From assembly GCA_028716725.1 (NCBI GenBank), contig JAQUPG010000001.1:47660-111659 (forward strand): 64,000 nucleotides of DNA, written 5' to 3'. The position numbers were made by a program, and so were the translations under genes. Within the stretch, counting starts at the first letter, position 1; each line of letters begins with the position of its first letter. The notes below the pieces were generated by a model. The model was not told where the DNA came from and searched no databases. It was given only the letters and a program-made list of their open reading frames with translations. This stretch comes from Patescibacteria group bacterium. GTDB lineage: Bacteria > Patescibacteriota > Patescibacteriia > Patescibacteriales > JAQTRU01. Positions 3,929 to 63,840 of the stretch are shown here, piece after piece.

Positions 3929-4005
3929 AATTCGTTGTTTTATAATAAAAATAGGCCTTAAACCTATTTTTATTATAGCAAAATTGAGGTGGGTGTCAAT
4001 GTTAA

Positions 4006-9133: not shown

Positions 9134-11602
9134 TTATTTGGCAAAATACATGCCATCGTCTTCCTCGTCAGATGAATTATTTTTTTTAGACGCATTATTA
9201 TTTTCGGGTGTGTCATCAGGTGTTTCTTCGTCAGACAGCTGGCCAGCTGTCTCTACATTTTTTTGAGACGAATCGCCATTCGTCTCTACATCATCATCGG
9301 GCAAATATTCATCCGGCTCTTCAGCCTCTTCTTTGTTATGCAGGCTTACGCCGCTTACGCCTTGGCTTATTAGGCCTTCGTATTGTTCTCGGCTTACCAT
9401 AATTTCTCTGGCTTTAGCTCCGTCCGACGGCCCGATTATGCCGTTTTCTTCTAAAATATCAAGCAAGCGCGCGGCCCGGGCATAGCCGATGCTTAAGCGC
9501 CTTTGCAGGAAAGAAGCCGAAGCTTTGCCGGAATTTATGATAAGCTCCTTAGCTTCTTCAACTAATTCATCTTCGTCATCGCCGCCGCCGCCGGCCAGGC
9601 CGACTCCGGCAATGCCATGGACTTTTTGCTTTTCCGTTATGCCTTCAACGTAGTCCGACTCTCCGCCCTTGCTTCTTATGTAATTTATGATTCTTTTTAT
9701 TTCCTGGTCGCTGACATAAGCGCCTTGCAGTCTTTTTGGTTTGGAAATCTCGGCCGTGATAAAAAGCATATCGCCCTGGCCCAATAATTTTTCCGCGCCG
9801 AGCGAATCCAAAATCGTTTTTGAATCCACGCCGGAAGCAACCGAGAAAGCAATGCGGGTCGGCATATTGGCTTTAATCAGGCCGGTAATGACGTCAACGC
9901 TCGGCCGTTGGGTGGCTAAAACCAAATGGATGCCGACCGCCCGGGCCATTTGCGCCAAGCGGATTACTCCGCCCTCAATATCCCGTCCGGCCGCGACCAT
10001 TAAATCCGCCAATTCATCGATGATAAAAACGATATAGGGCATTTTTTCCTGCCCGGGTTTTAGATTTTCATTGTAGGCCTGGATGTTTCTTTTGTGGGTC
10101 TTGGAAAGGGTTTCAAAGCGCTGGTCCATTTCATTAAGGCACCATTTTAAAGCGTTAATGGTTTTGCTGACGTTGGTGATGACCGGAGTTAGAAGATGGG
10201 GGATAGAGTTATAAATCGGCAATTCCACCCTTTTGGGGTCAACCATAATAAAGCGCAGATCTTCGGGGTTGTTCTGGTAAAGCAGGCTGACAATAACGGA
10301 ATTAAGGCAGACGGATTTTCCCGACCCGGTCGCGCCGGCAACCAAAAGGTGCGGCATTTTTGTTATATCATAAACCCAGCTTTTCCCGGAAACATCTTTG
10401 CCCAAAGCCACGGTTAAATTGCTTTTTCTTGCCTTAAACTCTCCGCTTTCCAAAGTTTCTTTTAAGCCGACAATGGCTTTGGTTTGGTTAGGGACTTCAA
10501 TGCCGACTAAGGCCCGGCCGGGTATCGGCGCCTCAATCCTTATGGGGTGGGCGGCCAGAGCCAGAGCCAAGTCATTATTTAAAGAAGTGATGCGCGAGAG
10601 CTTAACCCCCTCGGCTGGCTTAAAAGTATATTGGGTAACGGTCGGGCCCACGCTGACTTCGCCCATTTCCACGGCAATGCCGAAATTTTCCAGAGTTTTT
10701 TGGATTATGAAAGCATTATTTTTGATATCTCCGCTGGTGGGTTTGTCTTTTTTTCCGTTTAAGAGAGACAAGGGCAAATCTATTTTTATGCTTTTGGTTT
10801 TCCAGCCCATTTCCTCTTTGGCCCTGCCTTTCTTTTCCGGCAGGGATTCGGGAAATTCCAACTCTTCATTTACTTTTTTATTGGAAAAGCCTATTTCCCC
10901 GTCCAAAGACGCATCATCAGGCGTTTCCAGATTCTCATCCTCTATTTCTTCCTCTTCCATTAATTCTTCTTCGTCTTCATCTTCTTCCTCTTCTTTTCGA
11001 TCTTTTTCTCTGAACATTTTTGAGAAGAGGGCTTTAAGAGGATAAAAAGCCGAAGCTAAAATGCTTTCCGAGCCGATCAGTTTATTTAAGGAAGTATCAA
11101 GCATGAGCATTAAAGAAATGAGCAGGAGCCCCAAGAGGATGATAAGGCTGCCCCAGAAACCGATGATATTGTAAAAAATTAAGGCCAGGTACATGCCCAG
11201 ATAGCCGCCGCCGGCTCCGCTCGCGACAATTTCCTTCCAAAGCTGGACCTCAATAAAGAAATGAAGCAGGGCCTGGAAGGAGACAGCAAACAAAAACATC
11301 CCTAAATAATTCGTCCCCCGGACATAATATTTGTCTTCGTTATAGAGAAGCAGACCGAGGATGATAAGAATGACAGGAAAGAGCCATTTCCCCCAGCCAA
11401 AGGCCAGAGTCAGACCGCGAGCCAGATAAACGCCAAGCCCGCCGGCCAAGCCGAATAGGCTTAAAAAGCAGATGACGCCGAAAAGCAGGATTAAAACAAT
11501 AAAAATGCCCTTTTTCGTGTCCGGGTCTAAATTTACCTTGGGCAGGGCAATATAATCCAAGGGGTCTTTTTTTCTCCGCCTGTATTTTCTTCGTCTAGCC
11601 AT
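9134..11602 (-). CDS. ftsK: DNA translocase FtsK/SpoIIIE
   Basis: 822 aa with N-terminal TM helices, an acidic linker, Walker A GATGSGKSV, and a gamma-domain-like C-terminus. Confidence 0.95.
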   Translation of the reverse strand: MARRRKYRRRKKDPLDYIALPKVNLDPDTKKGIFIVLILLFGVICFLSLFGLAGGLGVYLARGLTLAFGWGKWLFPVILIILGLLLYNEDKYYVRGTNYLGMFLFAVSFQALLHFFIEVQLWKEIVASGAGGGYLGMYLALIFYNIIGFWGSLIILLGLLLISLMLMLDTSLNKLIGSESILASAFYPLKALFSKMFREKDRKEEEEDEDEEELMEEEEIEDENLETPDDASLDGEIGFSNKKVNEELEFPESLPEKKGRAKEEMGWKTKSIKIDLPLSLLNGKKDKPTSGDIKNNAFIIQKTLENFGIAVEMGEVSVGPTVTQYTFKPAEGVKLSRITSLNNDLALALAAHPIRIEAPIPGRALVGIEVPNQTKAIVGLKETLESGEFKARKSNLTVALGKDVSGKSWVYDITKMPHLLVAGATGSGKSVCLNSVIVSLLYQNNPEDLRFIMVDPKRVELPIYNSIPHLLTPVITNVSKTINALKWCLNEMDQRFETLSKTHKRNIQAYNENLKPGQEKMPYIVFIIDELADLMVAAGRDIEGGVIRLAQMARAVGIHLVLATQRPSVDVITGLIKANMPTRIAFSVASGVDSKTILDSLGAEKLLGQGDMLFITAEISKPKRLQGAYVSDQEIKRIINYIRSKGGESDYVEGITEKQKVHGIAGVGLAGGGGDDEDELVEEAKELIINSGKASASFLQRRLSIGYARAARLLDILEENGIIGPSDGAKAREIMVSREQYEGLISQGVSGVSLHNKEEAEEPDEYLPDDDVETNGDSSQKNVETAGQLSDEETPDDTPENNNASKKNNSSDEEDDGMYFAK

Positions 11603-36133: not shown

Positions 36134-36955
36134 ATGGTAAATTTTCTTCATACTTTTAACCCCAATCCAATTTTAGTTTCTTTCGGCCCGATTAATATTT
36201 ATTGGTACGGTTTTTTTATTGTTTTAGGGGCTTTGGCCGCTATAGCTGTGGCTTTTAAAATTTCTTCTTATTACTCCTTGAAAAAAGAAGCAATTATTGA
36301 TTTGGCCTTTTGGCTGGTTATCGGCGGGATAATCGGGGCCCGGCTTTACCATGTTTTTTTGGAATTCCCTTATTATCTAAAATATCCTTTAAATATTTTT
36401 AAAGTCTGGCAAGGCGGGTTAGCTATCCATGGCGCGATTATCGCCGGCTTATTGATAATCTGGTTTTTTGCCAAAAAGCGCAATTTAGATTTTTGGCTTC
36501 TAACCGCCATTATCGCTCCGGGCCTGGCTTTAGCTCAGGCGATCGGGCGCTGGGGAAATTATTTTAACGGGGAACTTTTTGGCAAGCCCACTAATTTAGG
36601 TTGGGGGATTCCGATTGATATTATGAGGCGGCCGCTTGAATATATTTCTTCTGAATTTTTCCACCCCACGTTTCTGTATGAATCAATCGGCAATTTTTTA
36701 ATTTTCCTGATTTTAATTTCTCTCCATATTTGGATCATCGGGAAAAAACAATTTAAAAATTATTCTTACTTTTTAATTTTTTCTTTTTATTTAATAATGT
36801 ATTCTATTCTTCGCTTTAGCCTGGAATTTATTAGGATAGATGAAACGCCGGTTATCTGGAGTTTAAGATTTCCGCAGATTGCCAGTTTAATTATAGTCTT
36901 ATTGACTTTTGCCCTGTTAATCTATAAAATTAGGAAAGATAAATTGAAAACATAA
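36134..36955 (+). CDS. lgt: prolipoprotein diacylglyceryl transferase
   Basis: Start set at MVNFLHTF... Motifs present: YWYGFFIVLG, GRWGNYFNGELFG, HPTFLYES. Confidence 0.9.
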   Translation: MVNFLHTFNPNPILVSFGPINIYWYGFFIVLGALAAIAVAFKISSYYSLKKEAIIDLAFWLVIGGIIGARLYHVFLEFPYYLKYPLNIFKVWQGGLAIHGAIIAGLLIIWFFAKKRNLDFWLLTAIIAPGLALAQAIGRWGNYFNGELFGKPTNLGWGIPIDIMRRPLEYISSEFFHPTFLYESIGNFLIFLILISLHIWIIGKKQFKNYSYFLIFSFYLIMYSILRFSLEFIRIDETPVIWSLRFPQIASLIIVLLTFALLIYKIRKDKLKT

Positions 36956-37020
36956 CTTTTCTCGCCTACGCGAGCAACCGTGGGCCTTGCCCGCCGTAGT
37001 CCCGAAGGCTCGGGACGTAG

Positions 37021-37105
37021 GCGGGTATCGTATAATGGTTTATTACCTGCCTGCCGGTAGGCAGGTGTTAGCCCTGTCTGCCGACAGGCAGGCTTCCAAG
37101 CTGAA
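37021..37105 (+). pseudogene. tRNA-Gly 5' pseudo-copy (acceptor to anticodon stem) disrupted by two 20-nt hairpin insertions
   Basis: gcgggtatcgtataatggtttatta + [cctgcctgccggtaggcagg] + tgttagcc + [ctgtctgccgacaggcagg(c)] + ttccaagctgaa. Apart from the inserts this matches the intact tRNA-Gly at 37361. The T-arm and 3' acceptor are missing. Confidence 0.8.
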
Positions 37106-37120
37106 TATTAAAATTAAGAT

Positions 37121-37357
37121 ATGATAGTGGTGTATGCTATATATAATACGTCTTATGGTGAAATATATGTCGGTATGACCAATAACCTAAAGAGAAGACT
37201 AAAAGAACATGCCAGGGGGCAGACAAAATATACAAGAAAATTTTCTAATTTCAATTTAATATTTACAGAGGAATTCGAAGACTACAAAATTGCCAGAAGA
37301 AAAGAGAAATATTTAAAGTCTGGATGTGGTAAGGAATTTTTAAAAACATTGATTTAG
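37121..37357 (+). CDS. GIY-YIG nuclease domain protein (YhbQ/UPF0213-type), 78 aa
   Basis: VYAIYN..GEIYVGMTNNLKRRLKEH..E..K, i.e. the GIY-x10-YVG, Arg and Glu catalytic pattern. The protein is a single domain. Confidence 0.85.
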   Translation: MIVVYAIYNTSYGEIYVGMTNNLKRRLKEHARGQTKYTRKFSNFNLIFTEEFEDYKIARRKEKYLKSGCGKEFLKTLI

Positions 37358-37360
37358 TTC

Positions 37361-37433
37361 GCGGGTATCGTATAATGGTTTATTATGTTAGCCTTCCAAG
37401 CTGAAGATACGGGTTCGATTCCCGTTACCCGCT
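37361..37433 (+). tRNA. tRNA-Gly (UCC)
   Basis: Acceptor GCGGGTA/TACCCGC, anticodon stem-loop TTAGC-CTTCCAA-GCTGA, T-arm ACGGG-TTCGATT-CCCGT, discriminator T. It starts 4 nt after the GIY-YIG stop. Confidence 0.9.
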
Positions 37434-37546
37434 CCTTTCTTCGCTTCCTCCTACACTGAAGTTTCGGAGGACAAGAAAGCTACAAATGACAAGCAATAGA
37501 AATTCATGGACATCGCAAGCTCGCCCGCCGAAGCTTTAGCGTAGGT

Positions 37547-37565
37547 GGGTTCCCGTTACCCGCTC
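37547..37565 (+). pseudogene. tRNA-Gly 3' remnant
   Basis: gggttcccgttacccgctc matches the T-arm/acceptor 3' end of tRNA-Gly. It is preceded by the same gcccgcc..gtagg context that precedes the 5' pseudo-copy at 36989-37020. Confidence 0.6.
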
Positions 37566-37613
37566 TGATATTGATAGTTAACAATTGGCTATTAACAATT
37601 AACTAATTAAAGT

Positions 37614-37910
37614 ATGGGTGTAAAAGATTTAATGGGTAATGCCAAAAATTTAACCGATTACGAATTTGAAAGAAAGTTGAATGAATTAGTAAGAACTAAT
37701 TACCGTTATAGTAATTTAAATGACAAGAATAAAAAAATTATTTTGGATTTAGTTAAAAAATACAAGTCCTATTTGAGGAAGGGGATTGGCATTTCTTCCG
37801 TTAATTTAAGGAATGAGTCGTATCGGCTTTATCAAAATCGATTAAAACTTGGTTTAACAGAAGGAGATTTGGATGATATAAAAGAAATTTTAGGGGAACT
37901 CCGAAGTTAA
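37614..37910 (+). CDS. hypothetical protein, 98 aa
   Basis: ORF followed by a strong terminator. No motif recognised. Confidence 0.5.
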   Translation: MGVKDLMGNAKNLTDYEFERKLNELVRTNYRYSNLNDKNKKIILDLVKKYKSYLRKGIGISSVNLRNESYRLYQNRLKLGLTEGDLDDIKEILGELRS

Positions 37911-63791: not shown

Positions 63792-63840
63792 ATTTTCAAT
63801 TTTTAATTTTCAATTTTTAATAACCCTGCCTAACGGCAGG
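63792..63840. repeat. clpP 5'-UTR repeats: ATTTTCAATTTTTA x2 tandem plus CCTGCC/GGCAGG mini-hairpin
   Basis: Two exact 14-mers at 63792-63819. The hairpin cctgcctaacggcagg at 63825-63840 is related to the 20-nt inserts in the tRNA-Gly pseudo-copy. Confidence 0.8.

Follow-up and report, generated by a model that had tools for sequence, protein, structure and literature searches.

The tRNA-Gly locus described here is probably one copy of a widespread selfish cassette nested at tRNA genes, which would consist of a gene for a 78-aa GIY-YIG nuclease and a partial (sometimes full) tRNA duplicate disabled by a 20-nt hairpin (H). With an intact copy of that tRNA directly on the far side of the ORF, the host would keep its tRNA. 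The locus lies in a Patescibacteria group bacterium (contig JAQUPG010000001.1), in the window, i.e., the whole 64-kb stretch of DNA that was analyzed. A preliminary description of this DNA had proposed a mobile cassette at the tRNA gene; that idea turned out to be largely right, but its details of a split ancestral tRNA and of classical homing are unsupported. The same description regarded the arrangement as undescribed, and in the searchable literature on the hairpin sequence, YhbQ, COG2827, GIY-YIG with tRNA, and Bacteroidetes or Patescibacteria no description of it was found.

Structure of the tRNA-Gly locus

The only tRNA called here by ARAGORN and Rfam is tRNA-Gly(UCC) at 37361-37435/37433 (64 bits), and the stop codon of the GIY-YIG ORF lies 3 nt ahead of it, in agreement with the preliminary description. 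The features of the locus are as follows.

36902..36930, + strand: promoter-like site TTGACT-17-TAAAAT inside the 3' end of lgt (10/12 consensus match)
36989..37026, + strand: native 5' leader hairpin, CCCGCC-GTAG-inner hairpin-CGTA-GGCGGG (-20.5 kcal/mol, z -2.8)
37021..37045, + strand: partial tRNA-Gly copy, positions 1-25 (25/25 identity with 37361-37385)
37046..37065, + strand: hairpin H1 (CCTGCCTGCCGGTAGGCAGG), between tRNA positions 25 and 26; lineage-specific
37066..37072, + strand: partial tRNA-Gly copy, positions 26-32 (part of the 45/45 match)
37073..37092, + strand: hairpin H2 (CCTGTCTGCCGACAGGCAGG), in the anticodon loop, between positions 32 and 33
37093..37105, + strand: partial tRNA-Gly copy, positions 33-45, and end of the copy (part of the 45/45 match)
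37106..37120, + strand: AT-rich spacer from the partial copy to the ORF start; conserved in locus L007
37121..37357, + strand: predicted 78-aa single-domain GIY-YIG nuclease gene (Pfam PF01541)
37361..37435, + strand: intact, presumably functional tRNA-Gly(UCC) (ARAGORN; Rfam tRNA, 64 bits)
37436..37546, + strand: region X, from the intact tRNA to the 3' remnant
37547..37565, + strand: 3' remnant (tRNA T-stem 3' strand and acceptor 3' strand), then native downstream DNA

With its two 20-nt hairpins removed, 37021-37105 is identical to positions 1-45 of the intact tRNA-Gly (45/45) and diverges from it abruptly at 37106, while the hairpins are alike at 17 of 20 positions, all of which bears out the interrupted 5' copy of the preliminary description. 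The hairpin-bearing copy lacks tRNA positions 46 onward. At its upstream edge, the 3' arm of the leader hairpin takes in tRNA nucleotides 1-5, and the frame of this hairpin is also found 5' of the single tRNA in two alleles devoid of the insert (L132 and L134). The promoter-like site at 36902..36930 may be the native tRNA-Gly promoter, which would now drive the pseudo-copy, the ORF and the intact tRNA; between this site and the intact tRNA there is no second credible promoter.

On the downstream side, 37550-37565 is an exact copy (16/16) of the tRNA 3' end (37419-37434), and a match of at least 16 nt anywhere in the 64 kb arose in just 1 of 200 shuffles, so that the 3' remnant recognized earlier stands. 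Because the remnant follows the T-stem of its own lineage (cccgt here, ccccc in L007), the comparison indicates that it was formed recently or by gene conversion. The remnant had also been said to share a "gcccgcc..gtagg" context with the pseudo-copy: 12/14 and 10/11 positions do match, but by local alignment against shuffles this is marginal (p ~0.01-0.06). Region X, which is common to L007 (130-point alignment) and absent from the empty alleles and from L135, contains a lineage-specific 30-nt hairpin (37446-37475) and a leader-like stretch that runs from 37520 into the remnant (to 37549). A reading of region X as a copy of the tRNA 5' leader was set aside, as the similarity is marginal only, and is not relied on.

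The GIY-YIG gene is the sole ORF of the insert, its neighbours being lgt, a 98-aa ORF and purD, and no integrase or recombinase occurs within the insert or close to it. With E up to 10, an Rfam scan returned for this region the intact tRNA only, with no intron and no known motif, and in eight related loci scanned at the gathering score only intact tRNAs were found. As there was no Rfam match beyond the intact tRNA and no complete exon pair, a tRNA group I intron or intron-containing tRNA was rejected.

A single-domain GIY-YIG protein of a distinct subfamily

Against the Pfam GIY-YIG profile (PF01541) the ORF scored 54.8 bits (cutoff 22.6; E 1.2e-14), confirming the earlier assignment, and the domain spans the full 78 aa with no DNA-binding or accessory domain. 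The catalytic residues of GIY-YIG enzymes (Tyr of GIY, Tyr of YIG, Arg, His and Glu) are conserved: across 40 family members Y5, Y16, R26 and H30 never vary, and at least 90% of the members have E62. The AF2 model (pLDDT 88.8) has the topology E-E-H-E-H-H, in keeping with the three-stranded sheet and helices of the GIY-YIG fold, and its best Foldseek matches were BH0048 (UPF0213), Slx1, the I-TevI catalytic domain and the UvrC N-terminal domain. By profile, residues and model, the protein belongs to the GIY-YIG nuclease superfamily and is a predicted nuclease. The dN/dS of the ORF (0.06-0.12) points to purifying selection.

The protein had been called YhbQ-type, which holds insofar as the nearest solved structures and sequences are UPF0213 (PDB 1ZG2, BH0048; 1YWL, EF2693; E 1.6e-6 to 1.6e-5, 32-37% identity) and UPF0213/YhbQ proteins are likewise stand-alone GIY-YIG domains (~95 aa). 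However, judged from sequence, the tRNA-linked family is a subfamily distinct from UPF0213/YhbQ, with an invariant C-terminus of its own (KYLKSGxGKEFLK), and its closest functional analogue appears to be Ssn. No NCBIfam family scored above cutoff for this subfamily, the score for TIGR01453 being 24 bits against a cutoff of 56. To our knowledge, UPF0213 proteins have no link to tRNA. The family comprises ~3,000 protein clusters at 50% identity (E 1e-10 or better).

Association of the nuclease family with tRNA genes

In a survey set of 80 metagenome loci with 89 family ORFs, an intact same-strand tRNA (Leu, Arg, Gly, Asp or Asn) lay -21 to +120 nt after the stop of 61 of the 89 ORFs, and 12 ORFs had an intact tRNA upstream instead; the remainder were mostly tandem arrays or contig ends. 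Upstream of the ORF, 46 of the 51 tight ORF-tRNA pairs carried a partial copy of the paired tRNA, usually interrupted by H, and in 30 of the 51 the removal of exactly 20 nt restored the intact tRNA sequence. The coupling of GIY-YIG genes to tRNAs with duplicated fragments, which the preliminary description had noted at one locus, is therefore real and general.

What stays constant in the architecture is that the ORF lies between a partial tRNA copy with hairpin and an intact tRNA. In Patescibacteria, Bacteroidota and further phyla this arrangement recurs at genes for tRNA-Leu, -Arg, -Gly, -Asp, -Asn, -Lys, -Val and -Thr. The fuller layout (5' copy, ORF, tRNA, X and 3' remnant) has similar counterparts at a tRNA-Val gene (L087) and another tRNA-Gly gene (L001). 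The view that an ancestral tRNA was split between anticodon stem and T-arm fails as a general architecture, since the remnant is absent from 43 of the 51 surveyed elements and from the syntenic relative L135, and a similar remnant is present in L131, which has no ORF.

Moreover, the nearest neighbour of an ORF had the same tRNA amino-acid type in 70 of 73 cases, compared with 47% by chance (88 ORFs, with the window, L007 and L001 included); by this measure nuclease clades follow tRNA type. Target tRNAs and breakpoints vary widely, H being the only constant DNA element, and among the family loci there are pseudogenised copies, arrays in tandem and polymorphisms of copy number. One homologue is encoded in the genome of Niabella insulamsoli (CP190246.1, around 2.5186-2.5219 Mb). 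Viral contigs seldom carry the family (2 full-length matches), and a plasmid search for relatives gave only two weak matches. Phage as a vector was rejected on this rarity and on the finding that, among 75 viral stretches with H, a family gene was nearby in just 2. Partial tRNA copies and GIY-YIG genes beside tRNAs are common in Bacteroidota and candidate-phyla genomes.

A conserved and dispersed 20-nt hairpin

H is a conserved 20-nt palindromic element (CCTGCCTGCCGGCAGGCAGG) that accompanies the nuclease family across phyla. The two hairpin inserts of the preliminary description do not represent incidental decay; they are copies of this element. Exact H was located 13-55 nt before the ATG of 44 ORFs and within 150 nt upstream of 48 of the 89, and it occurred within 150 nt after the stop of 15 of the 89 (11 of these at 10-40 nt); in the window the copies lie 28-75 nt upstream of the ORF. 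H1 is the same 20-mer as the H of other phyla, and it is missing at the orthologous site of L007 and L135, a presence/absence polymorphism between lineages. H2 is identical, and at the same tRNA position, in L007, L001/L136, L139 and L140 despite their differing tRNA-Gly sequences; it also adjoins diverged or ambiguous flanks in L135 and L137.

Insertions of H are clean and exactly 20 nt long. In tRNA copies they are found at 25/26 and in the anticodon loop, elsewhere in D and T loops; H also occurs in non-tRNA contexts, and among the matches listed it is nested in itself in 7 of 121 copies. Outside the family context H was present, among the matches listed, in at least 120 species genomes and more, compared with ~9 expected from a uniform-composition estimate. 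In the genome and viral scans, ~95% of the H copies among the matches listed had no family gene nearby, and up to ~7 copies were found on one 29.5-kb contig. In the 64-kb window H is not dispersed, with two exact copies and one 16-nt H-like hairpin at 63825. H behaves as an invasive repeat.

Three further regularities were sought. Placement of H within the loop of a larger hairpin was rejected as a rule, since it held for 13-18% of copies against 2.5-7% of controls, which is an enrichment. Asymmetric variants of H showed a strand preference with respect to the ORF (10 against 3, many of the 10 related by descent) that was too weak to keep, and no half-hairpins were found as inverted repeats bracketing the ORF.

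Empty and filled alleles at the lgt-tRNA-Gly site

The empty site that the preliminary description had asked for was found: in L132/L133 and L134 (Lgt 85-87% identical), lgt is followed by the same leader and one intact tRNA-Gly and nothing more, whereas the full cassette is present at this site in the window and L007. The comparison supports the ORF-bearing arrangement being an optional insertion at a conserved tRNA-Gly site. In L006 the ORF is followed by tRNA(1-32)::H and then by the ORF again, a junction that only a tandem or circular form can provide. In L140 and L137 the partial copies are unlike the resident tRNA (the L140 copy resembles the tRNA-Gly of the window), which argues that the unit moves as a whole. 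On the other hand, the phylogeny of the five related lineages is star-like (lgt dS 0.65-1.0), and the two filled lineages differ in the ORF by a dS (0.98) that matches that of the host gene (0.73). Thus the ORF has co-diverged with its hosts, and gain is indistinguishable from loss.

Comparison with Ssn nucleases and the proposed mechanism

The closest described system is that of the Ssn proteins of CDD clade cd10448, which are GIY-YIG nucleases of one domain and ~94 aa. They bind single-stranded hairpin repeats and cleave upstream of these, their genes are flanked by the repeats, NTS/SRM, and strong co-occurrence of SRM and Ssn was found (Chenal et al., Nat Commun 2025, PMC11893778). In that published description "tRNA" has 0 occurrences (PMC11893778). 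By analogy, the present family may act on ssDNA. Both are small single-domain GIY-YIG proteins with no DNA-binding module, the 78-aa ORF conforming to the Ssn size and domain pattern (~90 aa, single domain). In both, the gene adjoins a cognate hairpin of ~20 nt (8-bp stem, 4-nt loop) that also has copies elsewhere in genomes; H, at the frequencies given above upstream (48/89) and downstream (15/89), falls within the 20-50 nt of Ssn cognate hairpins. An IS-like, possibly selfish origin is suspected in both. In contrast to Ssn, the present protein has 78 rather than ~94 aa, its hairpin is unrelated in sequence and usually on one side only, its link to tRNA genes is near-obligatory and comes with partial tRNA duplications, and it is found mainly in Patescibacteria and Bacteroidota, Ssn in Pseudomonadati. 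The SRM consensus HGTCWYN(0-2)YYVSBRHN(0-5)WNVSBRGN(0-2)RNCYNB had no match in H and its flanks or in the whole window; the NTS positive control did match.

Several steps would make up the spread of the selfish cassette, a mechanism that we infer: i) the ORF and the essential tRNA-Gly would here be co-transcribed from the native tRNA promoter; ii) the protein, by analogy with Ssn, would bind H when it is extruded in ssDNA and nick nearby; iii) the duplicated tRNA segments may serve as portable homology for recombination; iv) recombination would put the unit (tRNA::H + ORF) into a matching tRNA gene, amplify it in tandem or delete it precisely, precise deletion giving empty alleles; and v) H copies elsewhere may be non-autonomous relatives acted on in trans. 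Several points sit badly with the selfish-cassette model: H departs from the SRM consensus, the ORF has co-diverged with its hosts, most H copies (~95%) have no family gene nearby, an H-adjacent nick in the resident copy followed by single-strand annealing would favour loss over spread, so that the model does not account for the drive step, and region X and the 3' remnant lie outside what it explains.

A further-reaching proposal, which we offer tentatively and consider a minority chance, is that of a new class of minimal transposable system made up of the 78-aa nuclease and the 20-nt hairpin. In it the tRNA-nested unit (tRNA::H + ORF) would be the autonomous master and hundreds of solo H its non-autonomous derivatives. 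Movement of both would need no transposase or recombinase: a hydrolytic GIY-YIG enzyme would nick ssDNA under guidance of the hairpin, and the host would repair and ligate. The sites of insertion would be exposed loops, in tRNA genes, terminators and other hairpins, and no target duplication would arise. REP/BIME-RAYT and IS200/IS605 systems resemble the locus described here in their dispersed short hairpins tied to one small gene, in insertion without target-site duplication and, if the protein acts as proposed, in hairpin recognition in ssDNA. However, they employ an HUH (Y1) transposase with covalent intermediates, in place of which there is here a predicted hydrolytic GIY-YIG nuclease, and REPs are species-specific whereas H is nearly identical across phyla.

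Alternative explanations

It is unlikely that the ORF is a domesticated or resident host gene, i.e., a long-standing part of a tRNA operon that, for example, processes hairpins or R-loop ssDNA at highly transcribed tRNA genes or restricts incoming ssDNA like SsnA, the partial copies being relics of old duplications and the absences due to loss only. In its favour are the strong purifying selection and an ORF divergence that matches the host's; its presumed co-transcription with an essential tRNA and the host-level role of SsnA in transformation (PMC11893778) point the same way. A host gene is hard to reconcile with i) the arrays in tandem, the pseudogenised copies and the polymorphism of copy number, ii) partial copies mismatched to the resident tRNA, iii) an architecture repeated at eight or more tRNA types, with targets that differ by clade, iv) patchy presence among near-equidistant relatives and v) the behaviour of H as an invasive repeat.

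GIY-YIG homing endonucleases such as T4 SegB sit in a phage tRNA gene cluster, and enzymes of the Seg/I-TevI type are modular (~200-250 aa), have a DNA-binding domain and cut the dsDNA of the ORF-less allele, the target not being duplicated. A classical free-standing enzyme of this kind would cut the uninterrupted double-stranded tRNA-Gly gene, and break repair would copy in the ORF, a replacement tRNA-Gly and X, splitting the ancestral tRNA into the 5' part and the 3' remnant. We regard this as quite improbable, although the establishment of such enzymes in phage tRNA clusters lends it precedent and the present family shares with Seg/I-TevI the GIY-YIG catalytic domain, an optional gene beside tRNA genes and an expected recombination-dependent spread. 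Presence/absence polymorphism is likewise shared, ORF-bearing (window, L007) and ORF-less (L132, L133, L134) alleles occupying one site. The 5' copy, moreover, keeps its native leader, native DNA follows the remnant, and L087 and L001 have a similar layout with X and 3' remnant. A difficulty for the cut of an uninterrupted tDNA-Gly, as the preliminary description had it, is that the intact tRNA beside the gene does not differ from the presumed target, which would leave the host allele without immunity; furthermore, the protein is a bare 78-aa catalytic domain, with modular homing-endonuclease architecture absent and TIGR01453 below cutoff. The target tRNA is here duplicated and the gene accompanied by a conserved hairpin, a 3' remnant is lacking in most elements (43/51) and in the syntenic L135 but present in the ORF-less L131, and H is the only constant among widely varying target tRNAs and breakpoints.

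An integrase-island relic or chance tandem duplication, in which an att-type duplication would account for the 16-nt 3' repeat and decay for the remainder, is very improbable. The tRNA 3' end does recur as a direct repeat, 115 nt beyond the intact tRNA, 3' ends of tRNA genes are well known as sites of integration, and integrase islands and prophages also insert in tRNA genes and restore an intact copy via a duplicated tRNA segment. However, these elements are kilobases long and duplicate the 3' part via a site-specific recombinase, whereas here there is no recombinase, it is mostly the 5' part that is duplicated and the foreign DNA is ~250-330 bp; the survey contradicts the relic further, the pattern recurring at dozens of unrelated loci with the same ORF and hairpin. 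Finally, a functional tRNA that is split or contains introns, or another structured RNA, with the hairpins as its introns or expansion segments, is scarcely credible. At their loop positions an insertion would preserve a tRNA fold, but the copy here is without its entire 3' half, is unrecognised by ARAGORN and Rfam (no Rfam family covers it), and the same hairpin occurs outside tRNAs and within itself.

Implications

If the selfish-cassette reading is true, the locus would represent a very small and very widespread bacterial selfish element, whose landing pad is among the most conserved genes in biology and is left unharmed, by a duplication strategy unlike that of integrase-borne islands. For annotation, partial tRNA copies and the "GIY-YIG nuclease family protein" genes beside tRNAs would be one element. 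It would give Ssn-like nucleases a biological context, extend hairpin-directed ssDNA nucleases to Patescibacteria and Bacteroidota, and add a nuclease-hairpin pair that is new and might be put to use as a tool for ssDNA. H itself, as a mobile 20-nt palindrome nearly identical across phyla, would be a candidate for the smallest mobile DNA known.

Organization of the tRNA-Gly locus

ARAGORN and Rfam called a single tRNA in the region, tRNA-Gly(UCC), which lies among the following features of the window:

36902-36930, native promoter-like site
36989-37026, leader hairpin frame
37021-37105, partial 5' copy of tRNA-Gly
37046-37065, hairpin H1, between tRNA positions 25/26 (the window's extra copy)
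37073-37092, hairpin H2
37121-37357, 78-aa GIY-YIG nuclease ORF
37361-37435, intact tRNA-Gly(UCC)
37550-37565, 16-nt exact repeat of the tRNA-Gly 3' end

The preliminary description of an intact tRNA-Gly with a 5' pseudo-copy, two 20-nt hairpin inserts and an abrupt point of divergence was correct: 37021-37045 exactly repeated bases 1-25 of the intact tRNA, removal of both hairpins left 37021-37105 identical to bases 1-45 (45/45), and identity stopped abruptly at 37106. The GIY-YIG ORF assigned to the 5' side of the intact tRNA was likewise recovered (Pfam E 1.2e-14), ending 3 nt ahead of it. Because the tRNA-Gly has no room for a promoter of its own, it and the ORF are probably read from the promoter-like site. 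On the 3' side the proposed remnant stood in part: a match as long as the 16-nt repeat arose in 1/200 shuffles of the whole window, but the "gcccgcc..gtagg" context said to precede both copies was of marginal significance only (p ~0.01-0.06).

The window ORF consists of a GIY-YIG domain and nothing besides. Among 40 aligned relatives, Y5, Y16, R26 and H30 were invariant, E62 was present in at least 90% and the C-terminal motif KYLKSGxGKEFLK was nearly invariant. The AlphaFold model was confident (pLDDT 88.8) and similar to UPF0213 protein BH0048, Slx1 and the catalytic domains of I-TevI and UvrC, while no NCBIfam family claimed the protein. Its dN/dS against three relatives was 0.06-0.12, indicating strong purifying selection, and the family comprised 3,073 clusters at 50% identity (E 1e-10 or better).

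Filled and empty alleles

Relatives sharing the upstream gene lgt carried the site with and without the cassette:

The lgt-tRNA-Gly site in relatives
L006-L010: ORF 82% identical to the window's; layout after lgt as in the window, with the anticodon-loop hairpin as the sole one; leader hairpin frame at 318-353 in L007
L132/L133: Lgt 85% identical; same leader (frame at 1531-1565 in L132), single intact tRNA-Gly; ORF, partial copy and remnant absent
L134: Lgt 87% identical; leader longer (frame at 3945-3985), with the hairpin next to the tRNA in common with the window; single intact tRNA-Gly; ORF, partial copy and remnant absent
L135: syntenic, ORF 74% identical; frame at 1340-1381; tRNA followed directly by a 98-aa gene; remnant and the region before it (37436-37546 in the window) absent

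Thus the empty site sought beside lgt exists, and the site is a clean presence/absence polymorphism. The idea at the core of the preliminary description, an optional cassette with a nuclease gene that leaves a working tRNA in place, is supported. The five lineages were about equidistant (lgt dS 0.65-1.0), and between the two filled lineages ORF dS (0.98) was similar to lgt dS (0.73), so the ORF has co-diverged with its hosts; the filled alleles may reflect gain or the empty ones loss. Moreover, in L006 (1012-1359) the ORF end ran into tRNA bases 1-32, the hairpin, a spacer and the ORF start again, with a 107-nt terminal repeat, a junction that requires the unit to be tandem or circular; L007, from the same sample series, carried a single-unit allele.

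The gene prs followed tRNA-Gly in L007- and L134-type lineages, separated it from the 98-aa ORF in L132 (1681-2580), and was absent at that position in the window (cf. 37566-37613), L131 and L135. The 98-aa ORF itself (37614-37910; no Pfam match) was kept directly 3' of the tRNA-Gly locus in L131, L132 and L135.

The 5' leader of the tRNA also folds into a conserved hairpin frame (CCCGCC-GTAG...CG(T/A/C)A-GGCGGG, the 3' arm being tRNA-Gly bases 1-5), with an inner hairpin wholly different by lineage (TCCCGA/TCGGGA, TTTTTGC/GTAAAAA, CTCGC/GCGAG). Either a pre-tRNA structure has evolved by compensatory changes, or small hairpins have replaced one another in series.

The 3' remnant

Native downstream DNA follows the remnant, whose T-stem mirrors that of its own lineage (cccgt in the window, ccccc in L007), which points to gene conversion or recent formation. 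The remnant falls outside the general element, since L135 lacks it, L131 has it without the ORF, and 43/51 surveyed elements have no 3' copy. On the same grounds, the proposal that the cassette split an ancestral tRNA-Gly is unproven; the remnant may instead be what an internal deletion left of a second tRNA copy.

A 30-nt hairpin nearby (TCCTCC...GGAGGA, 37446-37475), unrelated in sequence to H and missing at the aligned position of L007, is another small-hairpin insertion polymorphism.

The family at tRNA genes

Scanning the family alignment over metagenome contigs yielded 80 loci with 89 ORFs; the ORF-tRNA tally covered 88 ORFs, in a set with the window, L007 and L001 added. Relative to the stop codon, an intact same-strand tRNA began at -21 to +120 nt in 61 ORFs; in another 12 the intact tRNA lay just 5' of the ORF, and a hairpin-bearing partial or full copy then stood 3' of the ORF. 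The remaining ORFs were mostly inner members of tandem arrays or at contig ends. Partner tRNAs were Leu (all five anticodons), Arg, Gly(UCC), Asp and Asn, with Lys, Val and Thr found at loci other than the survey's. The suspected association with duplicated tRNA fragments proved general, as 46/51 tight ORF-tRNA pairs had a partial copy of the partner tRNA 5' of the ORF; a 3' partial copy lay downstream in only 8/51. Furthermore, ORFs and their nearest non-identical neighbours shared amino-acid type in 70/73 cases versus 47% by chance: nuclease clades follow tRNA type.

Niabella insulamsoli CP190246.1 (L310 1337-2300) carried an intact tRNA-Leu(CAG) and then two units of ORF, full-length tRNA-Leu bearing H, and terminator, the second ORF having a premature stop. 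As a cultured isolate with two units, it is a tractable experimental host.

A gammaproteobacterial MAG (L087 860-1290) held a full nest at tRNA-Val(UAC). Its ORF was decayed, with the C-terminal third alone left; the D loop of the 5' copy contained another hairpin, of CCCGCC type, and one copy of H lay in the region ahead of an 18-nt 3' remnant.

Hairpin H behaves as an invasive repeat

Both inserts in the window are copies of a 20-nt hairpin, H (CCTG[C/T]CTGCCG[G/A][C/T]AGGCAGG; 8-bp stem, 4-nt loop). Of the 89 ORFs, 48 had an exact H in the 150 nt preceding the ATG, at a distance of 13-55 nt in 44; in 15, an exact H followed the stop by no more than 150 nt, the distance being 10-40 nt in 11. 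Removing exactly 20 nt regained the adjacent intact tRNA sequence in 30/51 pairs, so H inserts cleanly without target duplication. Its sites were loops or loop-stem borders (including Leu 14/15, 22, 39; Arg 21-22, 26, 55/56; Gly 32/33), and Gly-type elements of different candidate-phyla lineages carried the same H variant at the same anticodon-loop position despite differing tRNA-Gly sequences.

With one genome per species, H occurred in at least 120 stretches versus ~9 expected from our uniform-composition estimate, the matches listed covering Bacteroidota, Patescibacteria, Omnitrophota, Planctomycetota, Proteobacteria and other phyla. Among these matches a family ORF lay within 300 nt in 5/120, all five in tRNA or partial-tRNA context, and 7/121 copies were nested at the centre of another H; H was inside larger hairpins 3-5x as often as controls. 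At the orthologous position L007 and L135 had no H1, which shows directly that the hairpin is itself gained and lost. Thus H behaves as an invasive repeat. Dispensable tRNA copies were also invaded by other small hairpins.

In another Gly-type element (L144 1389-1480), H was split by a further palindrome, TAGATAGATTTATCTAC, and a different hairpin, TCTACCTAACGGTAGA, occupied 25/26, the site of the window's H1; therefore several hairpin families hit the same loop positions. Two shorter hairpins with a CCTGCC/GGCAGG stem, CCTGCCTAACGGCAGG (63825-63840, AT-rich intergenic) and CCTGCCTTTCTTTTCCGGCAGG (10823-10844), could be degenerate forms related to H. Among viral or prophage contigs, some were rich in H (L273, L283 and L287, IMGVR_UViG_3300037242_000417, at least 7 in 29.5 kb; L306, 4 copies within 1 kb), and their fetched stretches contained no family nuclease gene.

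Known systems and a proposed mechanism

GIY-YIG homing endonucleases of the classical kind have a modular build and leave their target unduplicated; the present protein is a GIY-YIG domain alone, and the homing details first suggested are not supported. In integrase-borne islands the duplicated part is the tRNA 3' end and a recombinase is required, and REP/RAYT and IS200/IS605 depend on HUH enzymes. Among described systems the nearest is the Ssn family of single-domain GIY-YIG proteins (~94 aa), which bind NTS/SRM hairpin repeats (8-bp stem, 4-nt loop) as ssDNA only and cut upstream of them, and whose genes are flanked by repeats in an IS-like arrangement (PMC11893778). H shares this stem and loop size but does not fit the published SRM pattern, and the Ssn paper mentions neither tRNA nor Bacteroidota or Patescibacteria (PMC11893778).

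By analogy with Ssn, the protein may recognise H once extruded in ssDNA, which strong transcription of tRNA genes would supply in abundance, and nick close by. The duplicated tRNA segments would then serve as homology by which the unit of hairpin-bearing tRNA and ORF integrates into a matching tRNA gene. One crossover would restore exactly one intact tRNA, and the same homology would permit tandem amplification and precise deletion. Such a model would account for: i) both orientations, tandem arrays and empty alleles; ii) the fidelity of clades to tRNAs; and iii) mismatched partial copies, as in L140 and L137, where these do not match the resident tRNA. We consider a selfish cassette of nuclease and H at tRNA genes somewhat favoured overall, and any specific recombination pathway much less likely.

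The window finding is real: a nuclease gene that is optional, conserved and under selection lies between duplicated tRNA segments, one intact and the others bearing the cognate hairpin. The arrangement had been thought undescribed, and our literature search, which included the hairpin sequence itself, agreed, returning no account of this architecture. The window locus belongs to a large class of cassettes, each pairing a nuclease gene with the hairpin and nested at a tRNA, for which we found no description.
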